IMG/VR virus record: IMGVR_UViG_3300025392_000294
Location: 1 to 60,480 of that record
Origin: a virus
Taxonomy: Duplodnaviria > Caudoviricetes
Reading direction: 5' to 3' (one strand)
Length of the DNA stretch: 60,480 nucleotides
Below the pieces are notes generated by a model, which ran no database searches, was not told where the DNA came from, and saw only the letters and a list, made by a program, of their open reading frames with translations. The translations under genes were made by a program, and so were the position numbers. Numbering within the stretch: position 1 is the first letter of the stretch; each line of letters begins with the position of its first letter. Shown piece by piece: positions 463 through 60,480 of this stretch.

Positions 463-1955
463 ATGAAGCTGCCTTGATGGAAGCGATAGAGAAGATGCCG
501 CCGGAGATGGCGTCTGAGATGTGGGAGATGTTTGAGTTCTATAAACAGAGTTTGGATGTTGAGAAGGCCAGTGACGACTTCTTGCAGTTTGTAAATGAGA
601 TGTGGCCTGGGTTTATACATGGGAGACATCATGAGTTGATGGCGGAGAAGTTTGAGGAGATTGCGACTGGGAAGATAAAGAGGCTGATTATTAATATGCC
701 GCCTCGTCATACCAAGTCTGAGTTTGCGTCTTTTCTTTTGCCGGCTTGGTATCTGGGGAAGTATCCTGGGAAGAAAATTATCCAGACGTCTAATACAGCA
801 GAACTTGCGGTCGGGTTTGGCCGGAAAGTCAGGAACCTGGTGGCGTCAGATCAATACCATCGAATATTCCCCAATGTGAATCTACGGTCAGACTCTAAGG
901 CCGCGGGACGGTGGTCAACAAATCAGAATGGCGAATACTTCGCTATCGGTGTGGGCGGTACTGTGACCGGTAAAGGTGCGGATCTGCTTATCATCGACGA
1001 CCCACACTCGGAACAAGAAGCAGCTTTAGCCCAAGGAGACCCTACAGTATTTGATAAAGTGTATGAGTGGTACACATCCGGTCCTCGCCAGCGTCTACAG
1101 CCGGGAGGGTCTATTGTGGTGGTGATGACCAGGTGGGCCAAGAAAGACCTAACCGGTAAGATCATCCAGTCCATGATCGACAGGGATGGGGAGAAGTGGG
1201 AGGTTATACAGCTGCCGGCGATTATGCCGTCTGGTATTCCACTGTGGCCAGAGTTTTGGAAGTTAGAAGAGCTGGAAGCCCTCAAGTCCGAACTTCCCGT
1301 TGCGAAATGGAATGCCCAGTACATGCAGTCCCCAACCTCGGAGGAAGGGGCTATCGTCAAGCGGGAGTGGTGGAAGATATGGGATGAGGATAAGGTTCCC
1401 GTGTGTGAGTATGTCATACAGTCCTGGGATACTGCGTTTACCAAGAACGAACGAAGCGATTACTCTGCATGCACGACCTGGGGGGTGTTCTATCTCAACG
1501 AGAACGTCAGAGATCCACACGTCATATTGTTGGATGCGTTTAAAAGACGGATGGAGTTTCCGGAACTAAAGCAGGTAGCGTTGGAGGAATATAGGAATTG
1601 GGAGCCAGACGCGTTTATCGTCGAGGCCAAGGCATCCGGAGCACCACTTATTTATGAATTAAGGGCGATGGGGATACCGGTGCAGGAGTTTACGCCCAGT
1701 AGGGGAAATGATAAGATGGTGAGGATTAACTCAGTGTCCGATCTTTTCGCAAGCGGAAAGGTCTGGGCGCCGCCTACAAGATGGGCGGATGAAGTAATCG
1801 AAGAGCTCGCTGCTTTCCCCAATTCAGACCACGATGACCTTGTGGACTCAACAACACAGGCATTGTTAAGATTCAGGAAGGGCGGGTTTCTATCTTTAAA
1901 TTCTGACGAGAAAGACGAGCCGTCTAGTTATCGTCGCAAAGCTGCCTATTATTAA
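459..1955 (+). CDS. terL: Terminase large subunit
   Basis: INMPPRHTKSE Walker A, LLIIDDP Walker B, QSWDTA and HDDLVDS RNase H-like nuclease motifs. Confidence 0.95.
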   Translation: MNEAALMEAIEKMPPEMASEMWEMFEFYKQSLDVEKASDDFLQFVNEMWPGFIHGRHHELMAEKFEEIATGKIKRLIINMPPRHTKSEFASFLLPAWYLGKYPGKKIIQTSNTAELAVGFGRKVRNLVASDQYHRIFPNVNLRSDSKAAGRWSTNQNGEYFAIGVGGTVTGKGADLLIIDDPHSEQEAALAQGDPTVFDKVYEWYTSGPRQRLQPGGSIVVVMTRWAKKDLTGKIIQSMIDRDGEKWEVIQLPAIMPSGIPLWPEFWKLEELEALKSELPVAKWNAQYMQSPTSEEGAIVKREWWKIWDEDKVPVCEYVIQSWDTAFTKNERSDYSACTTWGVFYLNENVRDPHVILLDAFKRRMEFPELKQVALEEYRNWEPDAFIVEAKASGAPLIYELRAMGIPVQEFTPSRGNDKMVRINSVSDLFASGKVWAPPTRWADEVIEELAAFPNSDHDDLVDSTTQALLRFRKGGFLSLNSDEKDEPSSYRRKAAYY

Positions 1956-1963
1956 GGATCATC

Positions 1964-4453
1964 ATGATTGAAAAGTCACTCAACCAAGCACCAGCCGGAC
2001 TAGAGAGTTTAGCTCAAGATCAGGAGCCCGTGGAGATAGAAATTGTTGACCCAGAAGAAGTCCACATTAAGGCCGGTGATCTTGAGATCGATGTGGGCAA
2101 GGGGGAGGATGAGGGTTTTGACGACAATCTGGCCGATGAAGTTGATGAGTCTGTACTGGTAACGCTGGCTGGCGATCTAGATAAGAGCATTGAACAAGAC
2201 AAAAACTCCAGAAAAGACTGGGAGAAAGCCTATACAGAAGGGCTTAAATTACTCGGCTTACATATAGAAGAGCGCACAGAGCCCTGGAATGGAGCGTCTG
2301 GTGTGTTCCATCCCATGATTACCGAGGCTGTAGTACGGTTTCAGTCTGAGATGATCACCGAGACTTTCCCCGCCAGAGGGCCGGTACGAACCAAGCTGAT
2401 CGGTAAAGAATCTCCTCAGATGAAAGAAATCGCTATCAATGTCGAAGACGACATGAATAACGAACTGACAGAGGTAATGAAGGAGTTTCGACCAGAACAC
2501 GAGCGCATGCTTTGGTCTTTGCCGGCGACTGGCTCTGCATTCAAGAAGGTGTACTACGATCCCAATTTAGGACGCCAAGTATCCATCTTTATCCCTGCCG
2601 AAGATATCGTGTTGCCTTACGGCACAACAGATATGGATACCTGCTACCGTGTGACGCACGTCATGCGCAAGACAAAGAATGAAATCGTAAAGCTACAGAA
2701 TGCCGGCTTTTACCGCGATATAGAGTTGCCCGATCCCAGCAGATCTAAAGAAGAAATCCAGTCGGCAAAAGATAGGGAGACCGGATTCAGTGACCTTACC
2801 GATGAACGATACACTCTTTATGAATGCCACGTTGATCTTGATATTGAAGGATTTGAGGATCAAAATGATGACGGTGAAGAAACCGGTATCATGGTTCCAT
2901 ATGTTGTCACGCTAATTAAAGGCACGCATGATATCCTGTCCATAAGGAGAAACTGGAATGAAGGCGACACGCTCAAGCTTAAAAGGCAGCATTTTGTCCA
3001 CTACCAATACATACCCGGCTTTGGCGCTTACGGGTTCGGATTGTTCCACCTCATTGGCGGCTTTGCTAAATCTGCCACCAGCATCATGCGACAGCTCATT
3101 GATGCTGGAACTCTATCGAACTTGCCTGGGGGACTCAAGTCCAGGGGCTTACGCATTAAGGGCGATGATACCCCAATTGCTCCAGGGGAATTTAGAGACG
3201 TAGACGTTGCCTCTGGGAATATTCGGGATTCCATCCTGCCGCTACCTTATAAGGAGCCGAGCCAGGTATTGATGACTCTCTTGGGAAGTATTGTCGAAGA
3301 GGGACGCCGATTTGCTGCTACTGCCGATATGAGTGTGTCGGACATGTCCTCACAGACGCCAGTCGGAACCACACTTGCTCTATTGGAGAGACAGCTAAAG
3401 GTATTGAGTGCAGTCCAAGCGCGTACTCACTTTGCTTTGAAGCAGGAATTAAAACTACTCAAAGACATCATTCGAGATTACACAGACCCAGATTACTCAT
3501 ATGATCCAGAGTACGGCGGCAAAAAATCCAAGAAAGATGACTACGATAAAGTTGACATCATTCCCGTATCAGATCCTAATGCAGCCACTCTTTCACAGCG
3601 TGTAGTTCAGTATCAAGCTGTGATACAGATGGCGCAGATGGCCCCCCAGATCTATGATCTGCCGCAGTTACACCGATCAATGTTAGATGTTTTGGGGATT
3701 AAAAATGCGGATAAGCTTGTACCATTACCCGATGATCAGAAGCCTGCGGATCCTGTATCTGAGAATCAAGCGGCGCTTAAAGGCAAACCGCTAAAAGCTT
3801 TTCTGTTCCAAAACCATCAGGCGCATATCCAAGTCCATCAGTCGATGATGCAAGACCCAACAATTATGGCCATCGTTGGACAGAACCCACAAGCGCAAGC
3901 CATCATGGGAGCACTGCAAGCCCACATGGCCGAACATATGGGCTACTTATATAGACAGCAGATCGAAGAACAACTTGGCATGGCACTACCGCCCGAAGAC
4001 GACAAGATGACGCCTCAATTGGAAGCGGCATTGTCAGGCATGATGGCTCAAGCCGCCCAACAAGTTGCCCAACAGCATCAAGCACAAGCTGCTCAACAGC
4101 AGGCACAACAGCAAGCGCAAGACCCAGTATTGCAAATGCAGCAGCAAGAGTTGCAAATTGCCCAACAAGAAGTCCAGATCAAAGCGCAGAAACAAAAAGC
4201 CGAGGCGGCTATTGCTACGGCTAGATTGGCTCTCGAGGAACAAAAAGCCACTGCCGACATACAGCTTAATGCGATGAAGACCGGTATTGATATGAAGCAC
4301 AAACAAGCTTTGATTGCCTCCCAAGAGAACCAAACTGGAGTCAAGTTGGGAGTTGATATTGGAAAGCACAAAGCACAGCAAGATCTCACGGCACGCCAGG
4401 CCGCTCTACAACATGGCGTTGATTTAGCTGATAGATTGAAAGGCAAAGAATGA
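1964..4453 (+). CDS. Portal protein with Q-rich C-terminal coiled coil
   Basis: Directly after TerL; 829 aa; FKKVYYD and IDAGTLSN motifs; long Q/A-rich tail like P22-type portals. Confidence 0.88.
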   Translation: MIEKSLNQAPAGLESLAQDQEPVEIEIVDPEEVHIKAGDLEIDVGKGEDEGFDDNLADEVDESVLVTLAGDLDKSIEQDKNSRKDWEKAYTEGLKLLGLHIEERTEPWNGASGVFHPMITEAVVRFQSEMITETFPARGPVRTKLIGKESPQMKEIAINVEDDMNNELTEVMKEFRPEHERMLWSLPATGSAFKKVYYDPNLGRQVSIFIPAEDIVLPYGTTDMDTCYRVTHVMRKTKNEIVKLQNAGFYRDIELPDPSRSKEEIQSAKDRETGFSDLTDERYTLYECHVDLDIEGFEDQNDDGEETGIMVPYVVTLIKGTHDILSIRRNWNEGDTLKLKRQHFVHYQYIPGFGAYGFGLFHLIGGFAKSATSIMRQLIDAGTLSNLPGGLKSRGLRIKGDDTPIAPGEFRDVDVASGNIRDSILPLPYKEPSQVLMTLLGSIVEEGRRFAATADMSVSDMSSQTPVGTTLALLERQLKVLSAVQARTHFALKQELKLLKDIIRDYTDPDYSYDPEYGGKKSKKDDYDKVDIIPVSDPNAATLSQRVVQYQAVIQMAQMAPQIYDLPQLHRSMLDVLGIKNADKLVPLPDDQKPADPVSENQAALKGKPLKAFLFQNHQAHIQVHQSMMQDPTIMAIVGQNPQAQAIMGALQAHMAEHMGYLYRQQIEEQLGMALPPEDDKMTPQLEAALSGMMAQAAQQVAQQHQAQAAQQQAQQQAQDPVLQMQQQELQIAQQEVQIKAQKQKAEAAIATARLALEEQKATADIQLNAMKTGIDMKHKQALIASQENQTGVKLGVDIGKHKAQQDLTARQAALQHGVDLADRLKGKE

Positions 4454-46424: not shown

Positions 46425-46638
46425 AAGTGTTTACCTTTAATGAAACCATGTGATTGCCTTCTTTGTCTTTCTTCTTCCAGCCGTCAAGCTTGATCTTGAC
46501 CTCGCCTTCAGACTTCTCAATCAGGGATAGAAGTAAGTCCCTATCGATGTCGATGTACCCGTTGAAGTGCGGTGACTTCTCGTTGAACATTTTTTTAGCG
46601 GTGAACAATGTGCCGCTGTTGGGGAAATCTGCGCTCAT
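46378..46638 (-). CDS. Putative ssDNA-binding protein (DUF736-like)
   Basis: NSGTLF...SPHFNG.I...KLDGW; acidic/aromatic tail DPWDN; next to Erf. Confidence 0.5.
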   Translation of the reverse strand: MSADFPNSGTLFTAKKMFNEKSPHFNGYIDIDRDLLLSLIEKSEGEVKIKLDGWKKKDKEGNHMVSLKVNTYEKKQQTPVADPWDN

Positions 46639-47399
46639 TTAAATGACTCCTTTTTAGCCTTGAACAAATCCAACAATTCGGCAAATTCCGCTGGATAACT
46701 CTTCTTTAAATCCTCATAAACGGATTTATTGACGCGGTATATACTCTGCACATCTTCGGCCGCTTGCGTGAGGTCCACGGTCATTTTTGTGGCTTCTATG
46801 ACCATGTTCTTCCATTCATCATCTTTGAGGAATTGGTCAATACTGATCTTCCACTCGACCATTGGCTGTGCCACGCCAATTTCCTGAAGTCCTGGGAACT
46901 CTTTTGAGTCCTTCAAGACTGTTGGTTTGGGCGTTTCTGCCTTGTATTTGGGCTTGTCAACTTGTTGGGGGTCAACTTGTTGGGGCTTGGGAGGGTCAAC
47001 TTGTTGGGGTTTAACCGGCTTTTCCAGTGGGGGAGCCGCATCAATGGGGTCGTTCTCAACCAGCTCCATCGCAGTCATCCACAGATAGCGACGTTGATAG
47101 GTCTCAACAGCGCCCAAGTTCTGTATTTCGTGCGCGCCCTTCAGGGATGCCGAGGCCATAGGGGACTGGATGACCACCATTGTGCCGTCGTCCACGTCTG
47201 TGATGGTTAGAGTGGCGAAATCTGACCCGTAGGATACGATCCCGCAGAGCCCTACTTTCTCGAATATGAGTTGGCAGGCCGGCAGAAAGTCTCCGAGCTC
47301 GAAGTATTTGTAGCCCGCAAAACTGTTTTTACCAGTCTTTTCAAGCTTGGCCAGCAGTAACTGGCACCGAGCCGTCATCAGTTTTTTGTGAACTGTCAT
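46635..47399 (-). CDS. erf: Erf-family single-strand annealing protein
   Basis: KTGKNSFAGYKYFELGDF...QNLGAVETYQRRYL. Confidence 0.8.
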   Translation of the reverse strand: MTVHKKLMTARCQLLLAKLEKTGKNSFAGYKYFELGDFLPACQLIFEKVGLCGIVSYGSDFATLTITDVDDGTMVVIQSPMASASLKGAHEIQNLGAVETYQRRYLWMTAMELVENDPIDAAPPLEKPVKPQQVDPPKPQQVDPQQVDKPKYKAETPKPTVLKDSKEFPGLQEIGVAQPMVEWKISIDQFLKDDEWKNMVIEATKMTVDLTQAAEDVQSIYRVNKSVYEDLKKSYPAEFAELLDLFKAKKESFK

Positions 47400-48274
47400 T
47401 CTTTTTCCTGTAAATATTGTTGATATTGAGTGCAAAACTTGTTGACCTGACAGAATGTCTCACAACGAGTCCTCTCCCCTGGCCGGGTCACAATCTCGGC
47501 CTTTCCTTTGACGTTAAAGAGGGCTTTGACAGCCTCTTCGTGTGATGCATGCACGCTTGTGGCGCGCTTGTTTCCCTCTTTCATGATGGCGTAAGAGGTT
47601 TGTTTTTCCCACATCTGCTCGGGTGTGCAGGGCGGCAGGTCGCCACCCATCTCGATGTCCATCTCGGCGTTGGAGTGTTCTTTGATCCGCTCGATGATGA
47701 ATGCTTCTCTGACCTCAAAAGGCCATAGATGGATCGGTATGACCTTAATCGGTGCGTCTGGGTATCCTTGCCTAGACTCGGCGTCTCTGCGGCTCCAATC
47801 GCGAATAATGGCCACGATTTCTACCTTCTTGACCGGCATCTGTTTGACCTTTTCGACTAGCCAAGCATAGATGTTGAGCTGTAATTCCCAGTCGATCTTC
47901 TCATTCATGACCGCCCAAGCACCGGTGGTCTTGTAGTCGTTGATGGTGACAGACCCATCGTCGTTGATGATCTGTAGGTCGATAGCACCGGATATCTTCC
48001 ATCCCTCGAGGGTGGTGGTGATCCGCTCTTCTACGACGTGATTGTCTGCCTTGCCGTGCTCTAGGATGCCGTGGATGGCTGTGCCAAAGATCGACCATAC
48101 GTTCTCAGTCACGTCGCTCTCGAGCTCATCCATGTGGGCTTTGCGCAGCTGCACCAACCTGGGGGCAGTGATCAGCTCGGTGGCAGATAGATTCGCCTGA
48201 CCCTTGCTGTAGGTCGGGCGTTTCATAATGTTGACGAAAGTCTCGGGGAGATTGAATTTATTCGTTATCTTCAT
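47396..48274 (-). CDS. PD-(D/E)XK exonuclease
   Basis: GTAIHGILE, ISGAIDL, INDYKTT, QLNIYAWL; C-terminal Cys cluster. Confidence 0.8.
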   Translation of the reverse strand: MKITNKFNLPETFVNIMKRPTYSKGQANLSATELITAPRLVQLRKAHMDELESDVTENVWSIFGTAIHGILEHGKADNHVVEERITTTLEGWKISGAIDLQIINDDGSVTINDYKTTGAWAVMNEKIDWELQLNIYAWLVEKVKQMPVKKVEIVAIIRDWSRRDAESRQGYPDAPIKVIPIHLWPFEVREAFIIERIKEHSNAEMDIEMGGDLPPCTPEQMWEKQTSYAIMKEGNKRATSVHASHEEAVKALFNVKGKAEIVTRPGERTRCETFCQVNKFCTQYQQYLQEKE

Positions 48275-48514: not shown

Positions 48515-48826
48515 ATGGCAACGTCCACAACACAGTTGAGTCTCAAGCACATGAGGGAGAGAGGGTTTTATGCGGAAGTCGTTGAAAGATTTAACTTTTT
48601 TACCAAGCGAAAGAATGATTTTGCTGGTTTCATTGACATACTTTGTCTGTCAGAAGGTGTGGTTGTGGGTGTCCAAACTACCTCCTATGGCAACACAAGC
48701 AGTAGGGTTAATAAGATCAAAGGCCACGAGAATTACCCAATCGTCCTCTCAGCGGGGATAAAGATCGAGGTGCATGGTTGGCGGAAAGTGGACAATCGTT
48801 GGCAAGTCAGAATTATTGAGTTATGA
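48515..48826 (+). CDS. Small PD-(D/E)XK nuclease / resolvase-like protein
   Basis: DFAGFIDILC...VGVQTTS...IEVHGWRK. Confidence 0.6.
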   Translation: MATSTTQLSLKHMRERGFYAEVVERFNFFTKRKNDFAGFIDILCLSEGVVVGVQTTSYGNTSSRVNKIKGHENYPIVLSAGIKIEVHGWRKVDNRWQVRIIEL

Positions 48827-48827
48827 T
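48799..48827 (+). promoter_or_regulatory. Sigma70-like promoter for the candidate antisense sRNA
   Basis: TTGGCA-17 nt-TATGAT inside the end of the upstream CDS. Confidence 0.6.
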
Positions 48828-48834
48828 TTGGTTT

Positions 48835-48895
48835 GTTTCCTGTAGTTGCTACTCCTTTGAGGGGTTTATCCCGGCCTAGTGTCGGGATTTTTTTT
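48835..48895 (+). ncRNA. Candidate trans-acting sRNA antisense to the early-gene RBS leaders
   Basis: 5' GUUUCCUGUAGUUGC is complementary to the consensus GCAACUAC..AGGAAAC leader; small hairpin; terminator ATCCCGGC/GTCGGGAT plus T run. Confidence 0.6.
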
Positions 48896-55190: not shown

Positions 55191-55394
55191 TCAAACCTCT
55201 TCCTCGCGGATATTGCACCGCTCAATGTCAGTTGTTTGTAGGTCGGTGATATCGTCTACATTGAAGAGCTCATAATCTAGATTGACCGCGACCTCGTGGG
55301 CGTCATCCTCATCCAAGGCGGTCACATAGACGTGGCACAGGGTCGTGTAGGTGGCGCTCACCTTGTATCGTCGTTTAAGCATGGTCATATGCAT
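55191..55394 (-). CDS. Small early protein
   Basis: YKV.ATY....V.A.DED.A.E.A. Confidence 0.55.
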   Translation of the reverse strand: MHMTMLKRRYKVSATYTTLCHVYVTALDEDDAHEVAVNLDYELFNVDDITDLQTTDIERCNIREEEV

Positions 55395-55707
55395 CCCCCA
55401 GTTTGTAGGTTTTGTTCAAAATCCTAAAAAATTTCGTGTTGTCTCTAACAACCTTTCCATCTTCTTCGGTTAAAAAGTAGGCGGTGATAATGAAATCATC
55501 CCCATCAAACCAAAAATTAAGGTCGTACTGGACGCCGTCCACCTCCGTCCAGTCCCATGATTCCATGCCATCATACGAATCCGGATCGAGTTCTCGTGGC
55601 GCCAGTTTAGCCAAAATCTTTGCCCTGAGCATGGGGTCGACCTTTACATACTGGCATTCGCAAACTGTTGGGTGTACTTTCCCGCTCGTGCATTGTTCGC
55701 AAGTCAT
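55375..55707 (-). CDS. Small early protein
   Basis: GGAGG RBS before MTCEQC. Confidence 0.55.
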   Translation of the reverse strand: MTCEQCTSGKVHPTVCECQYVKVDPMLRAKILAKLAPRELDPDSYDGMESWDWTEVDGVQYDLNFWFDGDDFIITAYFLTEEDGKVVRDNTKFFRILNKTYKLGDAYDHA

Positions 55708-55847
55708 GTTGACACCTCCGTCATTTCGAAATTGTAGAGGCGCGCGTACTGCTCGAGGGCATCGTAGCACGCCTCATAAAGGACTTCGTTCGCGAATGTG
55801 GCCGACTCAAAGACGTGGCCATCGATCTCAAAAAATATGGTTATCAT
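55704..55847 (-). CDS. Small early protein
   Basis: Hand-translated MITIFFEIDG...; ATGA overlaps on both sides. Confidence 0.5.
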   Translation of the reverse strand: MITIFFEIDGHVFESATFANEVLYEACYDALEQYARLYNFEMTEVST

Positions 55848-55966
55848 TCTTCATTCTCCTGTTCTTCAACGTCAAATCTAAGCCACCGGCATCCCTCGAA
55901 AATCTCGACAACCTCGAAGTCAATGCCGGCTTTTTCTAAGGCCTCGTATAGTTCTTGTGCGGTCAT
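55844..55966 (-). CDS. Small early protein
   Basis: Hand-translated MTAQELYEALEKAGIDFEVVEIFEG...; ATGA overlaps. Confidence 0.5.
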   Translation of the reverse strand: MTAQELYEALEKAGIDFEVVEIFEGCRWLRFDVEEQENEE

Positions 55967-56247
55967 TCTTCATTCTCCTCTTCGCCATAAAGCATATCCA
56001 AAACTTCAATACCTTCGTCATCATGCGGTACTTCAGTTACAAAGTAGCCGATTCTGTTTACATAATGCCACCCATCGACTATAAAAGTGCCAATATTTCC
56101 ATCTACTAATGTCCAAATTTTCTTTGGGTCAGTTTTCTTGATGAATTCGTACTCTTGTCCATATGTTTCAAAAAGTTGAGTTTCTTCATTTTGACCAAAA
56201 GTGTTTACGATTGGTTTGTATTTTTCTTCCCATTCTTCGTAAGTCAT
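55963..56247 (-). CDS. Small early protein
   Basis: FETYG.E..F.......IWTLVDG...G.HYVNRIGYFVTE.P. Confidence 0.65.
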   Translation of the reverse strand: MTYEEWEEKYKPIVNTFGQNEETQLFETYGQEYEFIKKTDPKKIWTLVDGNIGTFIVDGWHYVNRIGYFVTEVPHDDEGIEVLDMLYGEEENEE

Positions 56248-56483
56248 TTTTCGCTCTCCTTGGGCAGAAAATCATAAATTTTTGCAAAATATTCAATGTC
56301 TTCAATGGGCGCGTAGTATAAAAACTTGCTCACCATCTCTTGGACGTCTATCTCATTGAGCAAAAACTCCACAAAATCGTCGAGTCGCTCGCAAGAAGTC
56401 AAAGGCGCGTCTTGGGGGACGGAAAACACTTGCCTGAGTTTTTTGTTGCTTGTTTCACCCCAGTCCCAGTCAGTCTCCATCAT
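56244..56483 (-). CDS. Small early protein
   Basis: Acidic; coupled starts and stops. Confidence 0.55.
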   Translation of the reverse strand: MMETDWDWGETSNKKLRQVFSVPQDAPLTSCERLDDFVEFLLNEIDVQEMVSKFLYYAPIEDIEYFAKIYDFLPKESEK

Positions 56484-56674
56484 TTTGGATTCTCCCTTGC
56501 GTACTCAATACCGGCCTCGAATGCAATATAGGTATCCATCAGATGTGTGTATCCTTCCAAAGAGCTAACCGAATCGTTGTCTTTTAGGAACCGCAAAATG
56601 GTTTCATCGTCGCACTCGGAAATGCGACTAGAGTACAAGTCATAAAATGCTTGTTCAGTTGGTGATAGTGTCAT
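56480..56674 (-). CDS. Small early protein
   Basis: GAGG RBS; coupled to neighbour. Confidence 0.55.
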   Translation of the reverse strand: MTLSPTEQAFYDLYSSRISECDDETILRFLKDNDSVSSLEGYTHLMDTYIAFEAGIEYARENPK

Positions 56675-56843
56675 GATTTTGGCCTCGTGTTGTTTGGTAA
56701 TCTTGCTCGATGATTTCGAGTTTTCTCTTAAACTCTGCTAAAAATTCAATTTTGTTCTTGTATCCCAGTGACTGGTACGATTGCCCATAGGACAGATCGC
56801 ACACGTCAAAGTAGAGCTCCTGAATGAGTGTGAGTGTGTTCAT
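56655..56843 (-). CDS. Small early protein
   Basis: ATGA overlap. Confidence 0.5.
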   Translation of the reverse strand: MNTLTLIQELYFDVCDLSYGQSYQSLGYKNKIEFLAEFKRKLEIIEQDYQTTRGQNHDTITN

Positions 56844-57058
56844 TTTCTCGCCCCCACCACGTCATCGATTGCAGAATTTATAGAATTCCAGTTAATGCCA
56901 ATTTCAGCATCGTGTGATTTAACGATGATCTCCAACACTTTGCGGGTTTCTTCTAGGGTGAGCTCCTCGCCAATCTGTTCGCACTGGTCTGTTATATCGT
57001 CCTCGCACCATTCATCACGGATAACCCATTGTTTCTCAGTCTTAATTAATCGTGCCAT
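56840..57058 (-). CDS. Small early protein
   Basis: AGGAGG RBS right after hammerhead 1; W..DDI...HDAEIGINW. Confidence 0.65.
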   Translation of the reverse strand: MARLIKTEKQWVIRDEWCEDDITDQCEQIGEELTLEETRKVLEIIVKSHDAEIGINWNSINSAIDDVVGARK

Positions 57059-57076
57059 TTTTGGCCTCCTGTAGTT

Positions 57077-57128
57077 GCACAAGACCCGCTCGCGCGGGTT
57101 TCGCCCAGTCAGGGCTCATCAGTTGCGC
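57077..57128 (-). ncRNA. Type I hammerhead ribozyme 1
   Basis: GCGCAA CUGAUGA GCCC-UGACU-GGGC GAAA CCCGC-GCGA-GCGGG UC/ UUGUGC; predicted cut 57083|57082. Confidence 0.92.
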
Positions 57129-57362
57129 TTAGACTATTTCCCATTTCAGATCAAAAACTGTCGGGTAGAGCTCTTGCGTGGTTTCGGGTTCGCCCACGGG
57201 CTTAACCCATACGCGACCGGTTGAGCCGTCATTGTGCGGGGGTCTCCCCCCAGTGAGCTCGAACTCTTCGCCGTTGCGGGTTTTGATGATCGCGCCCTTG
57301 GGGACTGCCACGCCATCCTTGTCCACCAGTAACCAGTTGTATTTTGTTGCTATAGTTGTCAT
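57129..57362 (-). CDS. Small early protein
   Basis: GGRPPH..GSTGRVWV...ELYPTVFDLKW; stop abuts the ribozyme. Confidence 0.65.
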   Translation of the reverse strand: MTTIATKYNWLLVDKDGVAVPKGAIIKTRNGEEFELTGGRPPHNDGSTGRVWVKPVGEPETTQELYPTVFDLKWEIV

Positions 57363-57541
57363 TCGTGTATCTCCAAAAATTGATCGTAATATTCGCGCTC
57401 GAGCGTGTTCAAGAGGTTAACCGGCTTGATGTAAGCTGGGTTTCCGGTCATGCCCATGTAGGTCATGGCCTCTTCTTGTGCCCTGTGCATTGTCTTAAAC
57501 TCGCCCAACAAGCGAGAATTGTGGTTAAAAACTAGATACAT
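57359..57541 (-). CDS. Small early protein
   Basis: GGAGG RBS; LGEFKT...A..EA..Y...TGNPAYI. Confidence 0.6.
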   Translation of the reverse strand: MYLVFNHNSRLLGEFKTMHRAQEEAMTYMGMTGNPAYIKPVNLLNTLEREYYDQFLEIHE

Positions 57542-57699
57542 GAGCGCGCCTCCAATCGACCGCGGTTAAAAAGAAACACGGCCTTGTTTTTGTGTTCCTG
57601 ATACTCGCGCGCAAGCATTCGTTGAAAGCGCGCCAGTTTAATGCGGTTTGTCTCAAAAAGATAACCGGCTTGTATGTAGTCAAACTCTGTATATTTCAT
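57532..57699 (-). CDS. Small early protein
   Basis: Hand-translated MKYTEFDYIQAGYLFE...; RBS after hammerhead 2. Confidence 0.6.
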   Translation of the reverse strand: MKYTEFDYIQAGYLFETNRIKLARFQRMLAREYQEHKNKAVFLFNRGRLEARSCI

Positions 57700-57715
57700 A
57701 ATTTCCCTTGTAGTT

Positions 57716-57767
57716 GCATGAGACCCCCTCTCGAGGGTTTCGGCCTCTCAGGCCTCATCAGTCATGC
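57716..57767 (-). ncRNA. Type I hammerhead ribozyme 2
   Basis: GCAUGA CUGAUGA GGCC-UGAGA-GGCC GAAA CCCUC-GAGA-GGGGG UC/ UCAUGC; predicted cut 57722|57721. Confidence 0.93.
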
Positions 57768-57915
57768 TTTTTTGAATGATCGCGTAAATTCGGGAAATCT
57801 CGGGCTCAGTCAAGTCAAGCTCGCGTGCAATTATTTGCTCGCTGGCAACGTGCTCAAGCGCGACACTTGCTATTTTCATGATGGCGATTAGTTCTTTTTT
57901 GGTTAAATTCTTCAT
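57748..57915 (-). CDS. Small early protein ending inside hammerhead 2
   Basis: Hand-translated MKNLTKKELIAIMK...KSMTDEA*. Confidence 0.55.
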   Translation of the reverse strand: MKNLTKKELIAIMKIASVALEHVASEQIIARELDLTEPEISRIYAIIQKSMTDEA

Positions 57916-57925
57916 GATTTCCCTT

Positions 57926-58573
57926 TTAGTGCATTAAGTAAGATACAGTTTTATTCGTCCAGCAAGCGCGACAGTCGCGACACTCGCCGGCTTGGCTGGG
58001 GGCTTTACAGGCGAGCCCTAGAGGCTTTTTAGTGTGGACGTTGGACGTTGTCACGCCTCGCACGCCTTCGAGGCTCTTGGGTACCTTCACGGCCTTGTCG
58101 GGATACATACCGGAGAGCCGGACAATCAAGTTTTTGGGGATTACTCCACCGGCTGAGATAAAGTCTTTGATGATCGAGTACTCGCGCGTTGGAAGCCAGT
58201 GTTTTGTTTTCGGCGTCAATTGTGCGATTTCTACGATCTTTTTAAAGTGTTCAAGCCCCTGAAGGTCGCCGGAATCGTGCCATCTAAAGTACTGATCCGA
58301 ACCGATTAGAGTCACCATCGCGTCCACCCAGTGAGGATCATTGATTGAGTCTAATCTAGCAAATTGGGCGGGTTTAATGGTGTTCTGATAAAGTTGGTAG
58401 AAGCCGGAATTAGCGTAGCAGTAAAAACAGATCGATCCCTCAATTTGAGCCATTTTGAAACCGGTCGCGCACGCCTCGGTCGGTAGACTGTAAGACTTGC
58501 ATGGCATCTTCGAGGTTTCGGTGAGCCCACCAGTGAGCGCGCTCGCCTCTTTTTTCAACATAATTACTCGCAT
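57926..58573 (-). CDS. Gp88-like Cys-rich protein (radical-SAM-related)
   Basis: SKMPC.SYSLP...C...CFYCYA, YFRWHDSGD, HWLPTRE, CRDCRACW. Confidence 0.7.
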   Translation of the reverse strand: MRVIMLKKEASALTGGLTETSKMPCKSYSLPTEACATGFKMAQIEGSICFYCYANSGFYQLYQNTIKPAQFARLDSINDPHWVDAMVTLIGSDQYFRWHDSGDLQGLEHFKKIVEIAQLTPKTKHWLPTREYSIIKDFISAGGVIPKNLIVRLSGMYPDKAVKVPKSLEGVRGVTTSNVHTKKPLGLACKAPSQAGECRDCRACWTNKTVSYLMH

Positions 58574-58576
58574 GGC

Positions 58577-58753
58577 TTAACCCTCAATTAGTTGGTACAT
58601 ATTCCACCCGCACGTTACAACGTGCGACCCGCCCTTGATTAATTCGTCGATCATGGAGCGGTCGAAATCGTGCCAGCCGTCCCAATCGATAGGGTGGCGA
58701 CATATCTCGCGCCAGCCGTGGCGCTCATGTTTTGCGTGGTAAGCGATAACCAT
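58577..58753 (-). CDS. Small early protein
   Basis: Hand-translated MVIAYHAKHERHGWREIC...; AAGGA RBS after hammerhead 3. Confidence 0.6.
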   Translation of the reverse strand: MVIAYHAKHERHGWREICRHPIDWDGWHDFDRSMIDELIKGGSHVVTCGWNMYQLIEG

Positions 58754-58774
58754 GGTTTTGTTTCCTTAGTAGTT

Positions 58775-58827
58775 GCATAAGACTGGCACAAGTGCCAGTT
58801 TCGCCCATTAGGGCTCGTCAGTTATGC
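58775..58827 (-). ncRNA. Type I hammerhead ribozyme 3
   Basis: GCAUAA CUGACGA GCCC-UAAU-GGGC GAAA CUGGCA-CUUG-UGCCAG UC/ UUAUGC; predicted cut 58781|58780. Confidence 0.93.
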
Positions 58828-59055
58828 TACTTGGGGCTCGTATTCCTCCACCAGTTCGACCAATGCTTTCATGGCTTCTACGATGGTATTGAAGTGGCAC
58901 TCTTCGTTGTTGAGGTCTTTGAGGTAATATCCGGTGATTGGGCCTGTTGAAATCCAAATGGAATAAATCAGCGATCCATATTCGTCCATGTCATCAACAA
59001 TTTGATAGGAGTTGTTGAGTTCGCATGATTCGAAGTTTACGATTACATTGTTCAT
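58822..59055 (-). CDS. Small early protein
   Basis: Start MNNVIV after the AAGGA RBS; UAA stop lies in stem I of hammerhead 3. Confidence 0.6.
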   Translation of the reverse strand: MNNVIVNFESCELNNSYQIVDDMDEYGSLIYSIWISTGPITGYYLKDLNNEECHFNTIVEAMKALVELVEEYEPQVA

Positions 59056-59075
59056 TTTTGTTTCCTTGGTTAGTT

Positions 59076-59127
59076 GCATAAGACGCCCTTTCGGGCGTTT
59101 CGTCCAATCAGGACTCATCAGTTATGC
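59076..59127 (-). ncRNA. Type I hammerhead ribozyme 4
   Basis: GCAUAA CUGAUGA GUCC-UGAUU-GGAC GAAA CGCCC-GAAA-GGGCG UC/ UUAUGC; predicted cut 59082|59081. Confidence 0.95.
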
Positions 59128-59332
59128 TTGGCAGTACTGGCAAGGGCAAACCCTCACATCTGAATTCTGCATGGGTGAAACCGCGGTTCTTGGCGTAAGT
59201 CAACGCATTGGCGCGCGCCTCGACCAAATCATTGGACATAAAGCCGGTAATGAGTCGACCGCGGTAGAAAAGATCAACACAGTATCCGCGCCCACCATAG
59301 GGCTGATATATTTTTAATTGAACGGTTTTCAT
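59108..59332 (-). CDS. Small early protein ending inside hammerhead 4
   Basis: ...PSITDES*; RBS after hammerhead 5. Confidence 0.6.
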   Translation of the reverse strand: MKTVQLKIYQPYGGRGYCVDLFYRGRLITGFMSNDLVEARANALTYAKNRGFTHAEFRCEGLPLPVLPSITDES

Positions 59333-59349
59333 TGGTTTCCTTAGTAGTT

Positions 59350-59401
59350 GTGTGAGACCGGCTCTCGCCGGTTTCGGTCAATCAGACCTCATCAGTCACA
59401 C
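59350..59401 (-). ncRNA. Type I hammerhead ribozyme 5
   Basis: GUGUGA CUGAUGA GGUC-UGAUU-GACC GAAA CCGGC-GAGA-GCCGG UC/ UCACAC; predicted cut 59356|59355. Confidence 0.95.
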
Positions 59402-59693
59402 TGGTGGGCATAAAGCGCTTGAATAGGTCTTGGAAGGCCTGAATCAACAACCAGCGGTTGTGAGAGTCGGCGCATTGGTAGGCGTCGCCAATAGCACCGG
59501 CAAACGATCCACCGGATTCGCGCATGACCCTCGAGGCGGTGTGAAATGGGTCGTTAATGTCGAACCAGTGTTGCAGTGAGTCGAAACAGCGATCGTTGAC
59601 GCTGACGCCGGTCAAGTCGCAAAGGAACATGGTTTGCTCACTGGTAGAGTGATATTCAATTAAGTTATCGATTGTTTTGAATTGTGAATACAT
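59382..59693 (-). CDS. First early-operon protein, ending inside hammerhead 5
   Basis: GGSFA.AIG.AY..AD..N...L..AF; ...TSVTDEV*. Confidence 0.65.
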   Translation of the reverse strand: MYSQFKTIDNLIEYHSTSEQTMFLCDLTGVSVNDRCFDSLQHWFDINDPFHTASRVMRESGGSFAGAIGDAYQCADSHNRWLLIQAFQDLFKRFMPTSVTDEV

Positions 59694-59783
59694 AGTGTTG
59701 TTTCCTTAGTTGTTGTTGAAAATATGAGGCTCTGTTTTTGATACCCCATACCTTATATGTGGAAAAAATCGTGCCAGCGCTTG

Positions 59784-59796
59784 TAAGTTGTTGATT
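59784..59796 (-). promoter_or_regulatory. IHF consensus site
   Basis: AATCAACAACTTA fits WATCAANNNNTTR; lies between the divergent early operon and terS. Confidence 0.55.
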
Positions 59797-59888
59797 TATA
59801 AGGGAGTCTATTTGATTTTGGGGGTGATTGTGGGTTCAGACGTTTCGGTTTATACTCATGCAATCCAACAAGTTGGGGGTCACACACC

Positions 59889-60480
59889 ATGCCGGAAACA
59901 AGTAAGCGCGCGCCAGTCAAAAGATTATCGAGGGCGCAAATCAAAGATACACTAGACAACACACCCATCGAGAGCATATTAGGTGTAAAACAACCGCTCA
60001 CCAGTAAACAGAGAGAGTACGCGCATAAGGTAGCACAAGGTGTCATGAGTAAGAGAGAGGCATACAAGACAACGTATAACGCCCAAAGCGAGCATACACT
60101 GAACAATGCGCCTTATATGCTGGCGAGGGACTCAAGAGTGTCAAAAGAAATAGAGGCGTACAGGCTGGCAATAGAGGCGGAGAAACTGCGAACCCCCGTT
60201 CAACTGAAGGCTTTGCTAATCCACCAGCTAGTCAAGCATTCCATCGATGAGGACTTCCCACCAGCCCAGCGAATGAAGGCGCTCGAGTTGATTGGCAAAC
60301 TCTACGAAGTGGGCGCCTTCGAAGAGCGCAAGACCACCACAGTGATTCATCAAAAGAGCGGAGACATCAAAGCCCAGCTACTCGAGCGCATCAAGGCGGT
60401 CGTTGATGTGAGCGCAAAGCCGGCGCGTACCGGAGGCGCGAGTCTACTGGCGGAGATTTCAGAGGCGCTCGACCCCACCC
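59889..60480 (+). CDS. terS: Probable terminase small subunit (runs off the window end; not in the ORF track)
   Basis: Hand-translated MPETSKR...LTSKQREYAHKVAQG.MSKREAYK..Y...RMKALELIGK; would precede terL if circular. Confidence 0.65.
   Translation, partial: MPETSKRAPVKRLSRAQIKDTLDNTPIESILGVKQPLTSKQREYAHKVAQGVMSKREAYKTTYNAQSEHTLNNAPYMLARDSRVSKEIEAYRLAIEAEKLRTPVQLKALLIHQLVKHSIDEDFPPAQRMKALELIGKLYEVGAFEERKTTTVIHQKSGDIKAQLLERIKAVVDVSAKPARTGGASLLAEISEALDPT

Follow-up and report, generated by a model that had tools for sequence, protein, structure and literature searches.

Introduction

Hammerhead ribozymes of prophages often occur in several copies that flank single genes or short gene blocks, and the available sections of the work describing these clusters propose that they process RNA to operon-length or single-gene mRNAs (Perreault et al. 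2011, PMC3088659). Three such clusters were cleaved in vitro, polycistronic RNAs of ~2 kb being cut by the clustered hammerheads, and one cluster was also cleaved in E. coli (PMC3088659). In the present study we have analysed an array of five type I hammerheads in the genome of an uncultured phage, contained in a complete virus record of 60,480 bases (IMGVR_UViG_3300025392_000294; estimated completeness 100%), and we refer to this whole stretch of DNA as the window. Its phage context is given by the virus record itself and by matches to a large terminase, ERF, a helicase and Toprim. The array lies in an operon of small genes, and we propose, with a probability of about 0.72, that the five elements are functional type I hammerheads that self-process the operon RNA into six pieces.

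The 'HHphage' hammerhead of the haloviruses HF1/HF2 is located 13 nucleotides (nt) before the first start codon of the early transcript, and the mapped 5' end of this transcript falls within 3 nt of the cut (available sections of PMC3088659). In RNA mycoviruses, type I hammerheads of the 5' untranslated region (UTR) are needed for translation initiation, according to the accessible text of a 2026 report (PMC13725137), and type II hammerheads near phage-like genes of Desulfovibrio are cut, as judged by end-specific sequencing (PMC8782182). Later reviews, in their accessible text, repeat the processing idea and call the role of bacterial and phage hammerheads open (PMC6765202, PMC6155905). Our literature searches on in vivo roles, with other wordings untried, found no paper establishing a function for such phage arrays.

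Results

Hammerheads in the wide junctions of the operon

The operon, its hammerheads and their leaders have the following coordinates in the window:

55191 to 59693, minus strand: operon of 18 small genes (40-215 amino acids, aa), from the list of open reading frames (ORFs); one gene matches Pfam GP88 (PF17338)
59350 to 59401, minus strand: hammerhead 1, type I, predicted cut 59356/59355 (sequence, fold, Rfam family HH9 at 20.9 bits)
59076 to 59127, minus strand: hammerhead 2, type I, predicted cut 59082/59081 (Rfam RF00163 at 30.0 bits, E 1.4e-4; fold)
58775 to 58827, minus strand: hammerhead 3, type I, predicted cut 58781/58780 (RF00163 at 27.2 bits; fold)
57716 to 57767, minus strand: hammerhead 4, type I, predicted cut 57722/57721 (sequence, fold, covariance model R1)
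57077 to 57128, minus strand: hammerhead 5, type I, predicted cut 57083/57082 (HH9 at 23.3 bits, RF00163 at 19.1 bits; fold)
57047 to 59355, minus strand: five shared leaders after the cuts, each with six stem I bases, AACUA, a spacer, AGGA or GGAG, and ATG 22-27 nt from the cut
59694 to 59725, minus strand: leader of the first gene, CAACAACUAAGGAAACA, then ATG at 59693; the same motif without a hammerhead (alignment)

The hammerheads, of 52-53 nt each, are found between 59401 and 57077, that is, within 2.3 kb. The order of elements is the same in all five: stem I (6 base pairs, bp), CUGA(U/C)GA, stem II (4-5 bp), GAAA, stem III (6-7 bp, closed by a tetraloop), GUC and stem I again. The hammerhead core (C3 U4 G5 A6 N7 G8 A9, G12 A13 A14, A15.1-U16.1 and H17) is complete in every copy, with GAAA and later U followed by C17. 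The topology is that of type I, stem I being open and stems II and III closed by loops, and stem I has exactly 6 bp in every copy found. A hammerhead core consensus and rules for accepting candidates (consensus core and standard core-adjacent pairs) are given in the available part of PMC3088659; all five elements conform to them, including the pairs 10.1-11.1, 1.1-2.1 and 15.1-16.1. The minimum free energy structure of each 66-67 nt piece is the three-stem hammerhead (5/5), the centroid structure likewise, with z-scores of -1.8 to -4.0. The five elements are thus, by sequence and structure, supported as genuine hammerheads.

Each hammerhead fills the gap from a stop codon to the next ribosome-binding site. 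The UGA stop of the upstream gene is located in loop II of hammerheads 1 (103-aa gene, stop at 59384-59382), 2 (74-aa gene) and 4 (55-aa gene). In hammerhead 3, which has the core CUGACGA and a stem III of 7 bp, the upstream UAA stop is formed by bases 4-6 on the 5' side of stem I, and in hammerhead 5 it abuts base 1 of the ribozyme. The five junctions wider than 10 nt (48-70 nt) all contain a hammerhead, and the 12 tight junctions (20-nt overlap to 10-nt gap) contain none. From the cut to the ATG the leaders of hammerheads 1-5 measure 23, 26, 27, 22 and 24 nt. The same placement is observed beyond the window: among 31 hammerheads from the window and its relatives, a count that omits L009-L012 because they duplicate the copies of L008, the cut precedes the ATG by 22-27 nt in 30 cases and by 30 nt in the remaining one, and the upstream stop codon abuts the ribozyme, sits in stem I or sits in loop II. 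When the first ten genes of the operon were scanned against Pfam and PHROGs, the GP88 family and two PHROGs of unknown function were the only matches.

An earlier note on this DNA, made by a model from the letters alone, had described five minus-strand elements with the full core, and we find them exactly where it placed them, both in sequence and in fold. The first bases that it predicted for the 3' products (59355, 59081, 58780, 57721 and 57082) coincide with our cuts, from which its fragment sizes of 274, 301, 1059 and 639 nt are also reproduced. It had put the cuts about 22-28 nt before a start codon, the range in the window being 22-27 nt, and the shared leader that it wrote as (G)CAACUA..AGG reads (G/A)CAACUA...AGG in all five cases. 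Its picture of ribozymes punctuating the genes holds as far as every wide junction carries a hammerhead, but not every gene is separated from its neighbour, as the six segments set by the array hold 1, 1, 1, 3, 3 and 9 genes.

The leader of the first gene has the shared motif without a hammerhead, and the primary transcript presumably begins close to it. Strong conservation in relatives is seen in the 140 nt preceding this gene. The minus strand upstream of 59693 yielded no sigma-70-type promoter; within the conserved block, TGGCAC-N5-TTTCC at 59761-59776 on the minus strand (TTGTC in some relatives) bears what we take to be a loose resemblance to a sigma-54 -24/-12 element. A 10-bp quasi-palindrome, CAACTTGTTG/CAACAAGTTG, flanked by runs of C and G, has intergenic copies adjoining the operon, at 59866-59875 in the window and upstream of the operon in the related loci L005-L007.

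Comparison with chance and with related phages

With a strict type I descriptor, requiring the core and a minimum of 4, 2 and 3 bp in stems I, II and III, exactly these five elements are found on the two strands of the window; 200 mononucleotide shuffles average 0.04 matches (maximum 2, at least one match in 6/200), and the reversed sequence has none. A looser pattern does not discriminate, with 6 found against 3.45 expected.

We fetched 36 related viral loci by means of the 215-aa operon gene, the one matching Pfam GP88, and added a further locus, L004, from a pattern scan, giving 37 loci. Four of the window copies were used to build the covariance model R1, which matches 47 sites in the window and these loci, every one on the strand of the shared gene: five in the window, L005 and L007, four in L006 and in each of L008-L012, three in L016 and L017, and one in L019 and L004. 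The search of related phages for the same arrays, which the earlier note had suggested, is therefore positive, with 1-5 copies in 11 of the 36 related loci and none in the remaining 25. Metagenome contigs contribute 21 further matches to R1, including one contig with five and another with four. Hammerhead 3 is recovered by R1 at 49.7 bits though absent from the copies used for training, and hammerhead 1 scores 79.6 bits with our own covariance model, whose training set included it. Hammerhead 4 has positional counterparts in L005-L012, and the sequence of hammerhead 5 is identical in L008-L012.

The earlier note had also read the differing yet paired stems as a sign of selection on structure, and the alignment of 22 distinct sequences agrees with this reading: all 345 pair cells (345/345) are standard pairs and 13 of the 16 pairs have changed on both sides, figures favoured to some extent by an alignment fitted to the covariance model. 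None of 500 shuffles reaches the observed values, and partners slid out of register are 31.5-45.7% paired. Furthermore, stem I is specific to position across genomes, being GUGUGA after the first gene, GCAUGA before the MKY gene and GC(G/A)CAA before the MARLIK gene, which indicates that the copies were present before these phages diverged and have since been maintained independently. The bases around the stems are equally constant in 33 distinct copies, with A before stem I in 33/33, AAC after stem I in 32-33/33 and U as the first base of loop II (U18) in 33/33; these invariant bases may belong to the tertiary architecture of the ribozyme, to the leader, or to both.

One positional copy, found at 6882-6931 in L005 and 4544-4593 in L007 after an extra 61-aa gene, has the core CCGAUGA (U4C) with its three stems intact. 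From its sequence, this copy may be an attenuated or dying ribozyme.

By large terminase, the nearest cultured relatives are phage 023Pt_psg01 (62%) and Pelagibacter phage HTVC027P (54%), and no hammerhead was found in their corresponding regions with our descriptor or with R1 applied to the cultured-phage loci L041 and L042. A search for other ribozyme types in L013-L015, L018 and L020-L042 with descriptors of types I, II and III gave weak, chance-like matches alone, with short stems and inside coding sequence. At gathering score, Rfam reported no ribozyme in 28 related loci, the sole match being a Flavobacterium-1 RNA in HTVC027P. This RNA (RF02976, 90.2 bits, above its cut-off) is at 5480-5600 of L041 (MN698241.1), directly upstream of a small-gene block with a GP88-like gene; in the clade of the window this is the hammerhead region. 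A nucleotide search with the 3681 bases from 56800 to 60480 against 50,697 phage records gave no match.

The strict hammerhead pattern joined to the CAACUA leader, run over viral contigs among which near relatives may have been missing, retrieved one other contig, L004. This unrelated-looking phage contig carries, within 780-3560, one type I hammerhead followed by CAACUAGCAA, and its leader motif, CAACUAGC, precedes at least four other genes that have no ribozyme. The leader motif is therefore not tied to hammerheads.

A candidate small RNA antisense to the shared leader

A further feature of the window is directed at the leaders:

48834 to 48895, plus strand: candidate small RNA of ~60 nt (sequence, fold, conservation, duplex energies)

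The candidate is preceded by a promoter-like TTGGCA-17-TATGAT at 48799-48827. Its 5' seed, GUUUCCUGUAGUUGC, is the exact complement of the consensus leader, is single-stranded in the predicted fold, and is followed by a small hairpin and then by an intrinsic terminator. The seed is thereby antisense to the leader and Shine-Dalgarno sequence of the mRNAs released by the hammerheads and of the first gene. Predicted duplexes with the six leaders have energies of -25.6, -22.2, -19.0, -18.4, -17.1 and -16.9 kcal/mol. For comparison, 10,054 windows give a background of -8.0 kcal/mol with a standard deviation of 2.8, and no more than 43 of them, counting the leaders' own, reach the value of the weakest leader.

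In G001 the candidate is 84% conserved, with promoter, seed and terminator kept. Two related phages, L053 and L055, retain the seed and terminator together with the promoter-like hexamers. Eight viral contigs share 17 seed bases, two of them being these true homologues and six representing unrelated contexts. No homologue was matched in three further record fragments, and no hammerhead was found in the eight seed-sharing loci, in stretches that do not cover the operon region. The candidate possibly belongs to the hammerhead-leader system; it could instead be simply the 3' UTR of the plus strand gene that ends at 48826.

Discussion

Proposed self-processing of the operon RNA

With complete hammerheads, covarying stems and every predicted cut just before a ribosome-binding site in a shared leader, self-processing of a polycistronic RNA is, as far as sequence can indicate, the most economical reading of the array. 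In the mechanism that we propose, the minus-strand operon would be transcribed from 59693 to 55191 as a single RNA, and each hammerhead would fold as it emerges and cut after its GUC, yielding six pieces with 1, 1, 1, 3, 3 and 9 genes. Since the ribozymes are of type I, nearly the whole ribozyme, consisting of two hairpins and a 2',3'-cyclic phosphate, would be left on the 3' end of the upstream piece, and the downstream piece would begin with the six stem I bases and a 5'-OH, followed by a near-uniform, unstructured leader. Within each piece, neighbouring genes overlap or lie almost end to end, and their translation is probably coupled; hammerheads would then mark the places where coupling is broken. 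The benefit of cutting might be mRNA stability, even translation or timing, each of which is possible. The 20 bases after cut 4 are present in 6 metagenome contigs, none with the match at a contig end, a result that is neutral on cleavage.

Several observations weigh against this proposal. The Rfam search that the earlier note had named as a check is negative for the whole window at gathering score (0 matches), and positive in E-value mode, in which hammerhead families match all five sites, all below their curated cut-offs. RF00163 (clan CL00010) scores 30.0, 27.2 and 19.1 bits against a gathering score of 34, hammerhead 2 reaching E 5.1e-7 in a search of its own genome, and two copies fit HH9 better, at 23.3 and 20.9 bits against 52. 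In the alignments, stem III and loop II exceed the length of those in the model and are treated as insertions, and we have taken the sub-threshold scores as a limit of the Rfam model and not of the RNA.

No Watson-Crick pseudoknot between stem I and loop II, nor any known tertiary contact, was identified by eye, and the speed of cleavage at physiological Mg2+ is uncertain for this reason; the invariant A, AAC and U18 could form a stem I/loop II contact. When 100 nt of flanking sequence are included on each side, the whole hammerhead is the minimum free energy fold in one of the five cases and stems II and III are kept in four, the 6-bp stem I competing in the predicted folds with other pairings. 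Terminating ribosomes would also cover the 5' half of every ribozyme, so that translation may compete with folding. Furthermore, L013, L014, L015 and L018 have GP88-like proteins that are 81-85% identical and no hammerheads, and they join the same two genes by a plain, tight stop-RBS-ATG junction (RBS, ribosome-binding site); the hammerhead-leader unit is thus an insertion or deletion of ~75 nt, dispensable at least at that junction. As to the fate of the products, the glmS ribozyme of Bacillus leaves a 5'-OH product that undergoes faster degradation, and a 5'-OH end is therefore not stabilising in every host. The predicted accessibility of the ribosome-binding sites before and after cleavage goes from 0.76 to 0.71, 0.62 to 0.88, 0.67 to 0.68, 0.53 to 0.63 and 0.39 to 0.56.

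Two candidates were set aside during the analysis. Unmasking of the ribosome-binding site by cleavage was dropped as a mechanism, the predicted changes in accessibility being small and inconsistent. RAGATH-1 (RF03152) was rejected as an assignment, with 20.7-23.3 bits and E values of 1.1-4 against a gathering score of 56.3, as the generic core alone aligns.

We tentatively consider an extension of the self-processing proposal, a two-part post-transcriptional switch combined with a portable gene socket, although it appears doubtful as a whole. In the switch, cleavage might equalise the leaders, the five cut mRNAs gaining the leader of the primary transcript, and the small RNA, antisense to leader and Shine-Dalgarno sequence, might then silence all six messages. 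Such a joint shut-off could conceivably occur, for instance, at the change from early to later gene expression, a suggestion that is just as speculative. The socket part, to which we give no more credit, would have the hammerhead-leader unit provide three-frame stops and a ready leader for genes new to the operon. Should the candidate small RNA prove real, the leader shared by these messages would be the common point at which they are controlled in trans.

Alternative explanations

It is also conceivable, but unlikely, that the benefit of the repeats is at the DNA level. The unit of hammerhead and leader (~75 bp) would then serve as a repeated boundary for the swapping of cassettes between co-infecting relatives, aided by the phage Erf annealing protein and a PD-(D/E)XK nuclease, with RNA cleavage being secondary or tolerated. 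The phage has ERF and PDDEXK_1 genes at 46635-48274, and in our gene-order map, which rests on crude ORF calling, the hammerhead slots are conserved and their content is variable: between slots 1 and 2 lie c2, c30, c2 and c30, or c2-hammerhead-c3, the extra gene c31 is accompanied by an extra hammerhead in L005 and L007, and the extra gene c6 of the window ends within hammerhead 4. The leaders are conserved to just past the ATG and the downstream genes differ, and most copies present stops in three frames (UGA or UAA at bases 4-6 in 22/33, the UGA of the core, and UGA or UAA at bases 18-20 in 29/33). However, the compensatory changes in all three stems show selection on the RNA fold and not on DNA identity, the window copies would be poor recombination substrates (mean column identity 81% over 52 nt), and mosaic gene content is common in phage operons without such repeats. 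Conserved slots, variable genes and extra genes that come with an extra hammerhead do fit a secondary role as cassette boundaries.

Quite improbable, in our judgement, is that the hammerheads lower or time expression, either because downstream blocks, once uncoupled by cleavage, are exposed to decay, or because upstream translation gates cleavage. In the gated version the ratios of the blocks would follow ribosome traffic through the upstream stop codon in or beside the ribozyme. The available sections of PMC3088659 do propose slower phage variants and regulated cleavage, and the U4C copy of L005 and L007, with intact stems, suggests tuned or lost activity at some sites. In all five window copies the stop codon falls between 2 bases before the ribozyme and base 20, and a ribosome terminating there would consequently open up stem I, the core and stem II; however, stop codons adjacent to the ribozymes may reflect genome compaction only.

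Circularisation of some excised pieces, by reverse hammerhead ligation or by an RtcB-type ligase, into circular mRNAs of 301 and 1059 nt is hardly credible. In its favour, 5'-OH and 2',3'-cyclic phosphate ends are RtcB substrates, and stem I can be re-formed between the downstream 5' end of hammerhead 2 (UUAUGC) and hammerhead 3 (GCAUAA), as well as, with one G-U pair, between the downstream 5' end of hammerhead 3 and hammerhead 4 (GCAUGA). However, matching ends are limited to 2 of the 4 internal pieces, and copies of common descent are expected to resemble each other in stem I. According to the available sections of Perreault et al. (PMC3088659), spliced or circular products of clustered hammerheads were looked for and none detected.

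Significance and comparison with known systems

The array leaves the general picture of phage hammerheads unchanged and represents a clean, compact test case. It offers five type I copies of one rigid architecture, a simple junction rule, close relatives without the element at the same junction and, in addition, a candidate small RNA directed at the shared leader. With these assets it can be tested directly whether the stability, translation or timing of the mRNAs of a phage operon is set by ribozyme cutting. The array may be of interest to synthetic biologists as well, as a natural insulator whose scar measures only 6 nt.

Among systems with other mechanisms, the early mRNA of T7 is a polycistronic RNA cut by host RNase III at intergenic structured sites, with 5'-phosphate and 3'-OH ends. 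As in T7, intergenic cuts in the array would give gene-length mRNAs that keep a 3' hairpin; unlike in T7, the RNA would cut itself and leave a 5'-OH and a 2',3'-cyclic phosphate. RiboJ, engineered from a satellite-RNA hammerhead, is retained on the downstream RNA with an added hairpin. The array resembles such insulators in that self-cleavage before the ribosome-binding site would give the downstream mRNA a defined 5' end independent of upstream sequence, and differs from RiboJ in that its type I ribozymes would leave only 6 nt on the downstream RNA. The promoter-stem-loop (PeSL) cassette boundaries of T4-type phages consist of promoters and terminator hairpins; they are likewise short repeated regulatory units bounding variable small-gene cassettes, the units of the array being ribozymes instead.

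Closer in kind is HHphage, which shares with the array the location of a hammerhead a few bases upstream of a start codon in a polycistronic transcript, an early one in its case; however, HHphage is a single copy with a core variant needing high salt, in an archaeal virus (available sections of PMC3088659). The mycovirus hammerheads are also of type I and just upstream of an ORF, and there self-cleavage is linked to downstream translation, but they belong to eukaryotic RNA viruses with cap-independent translation and, in the accessible text, are single or paired motifs and form no operon array (PMC13725137).

The closest systems are the clusters of Perreault et al., and with respect to these the earlier note has to be corrected. 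What it said of the hammerheads, of their covariation and of cuts before the ribosome-binding site in a shared leader stands, whereas the gene-punctuating arrangement that it thought unusual is not, given that clusters had been described and cleaved in vitro by 2011 (PMC3088659). The array is thus another case of the phage hammerhead clusters described since then. As in those clusters, several complete hammerheads on the same strand are found within a few kb, between small and mostly uncharacterised phage genes, and the same processing hypothesis applies. Compared with what the available sections of PMC3088659 describe, the array stands apart in having five copies, all of type I, in which stem I is always 6 bp long, preceded by an invariant A and followed by AAC, and the leader is uniform; in being known from sequence, from an uncultured phage and not a prophage; and in having every junction of more than 10 nt occupied by a hammerhead.

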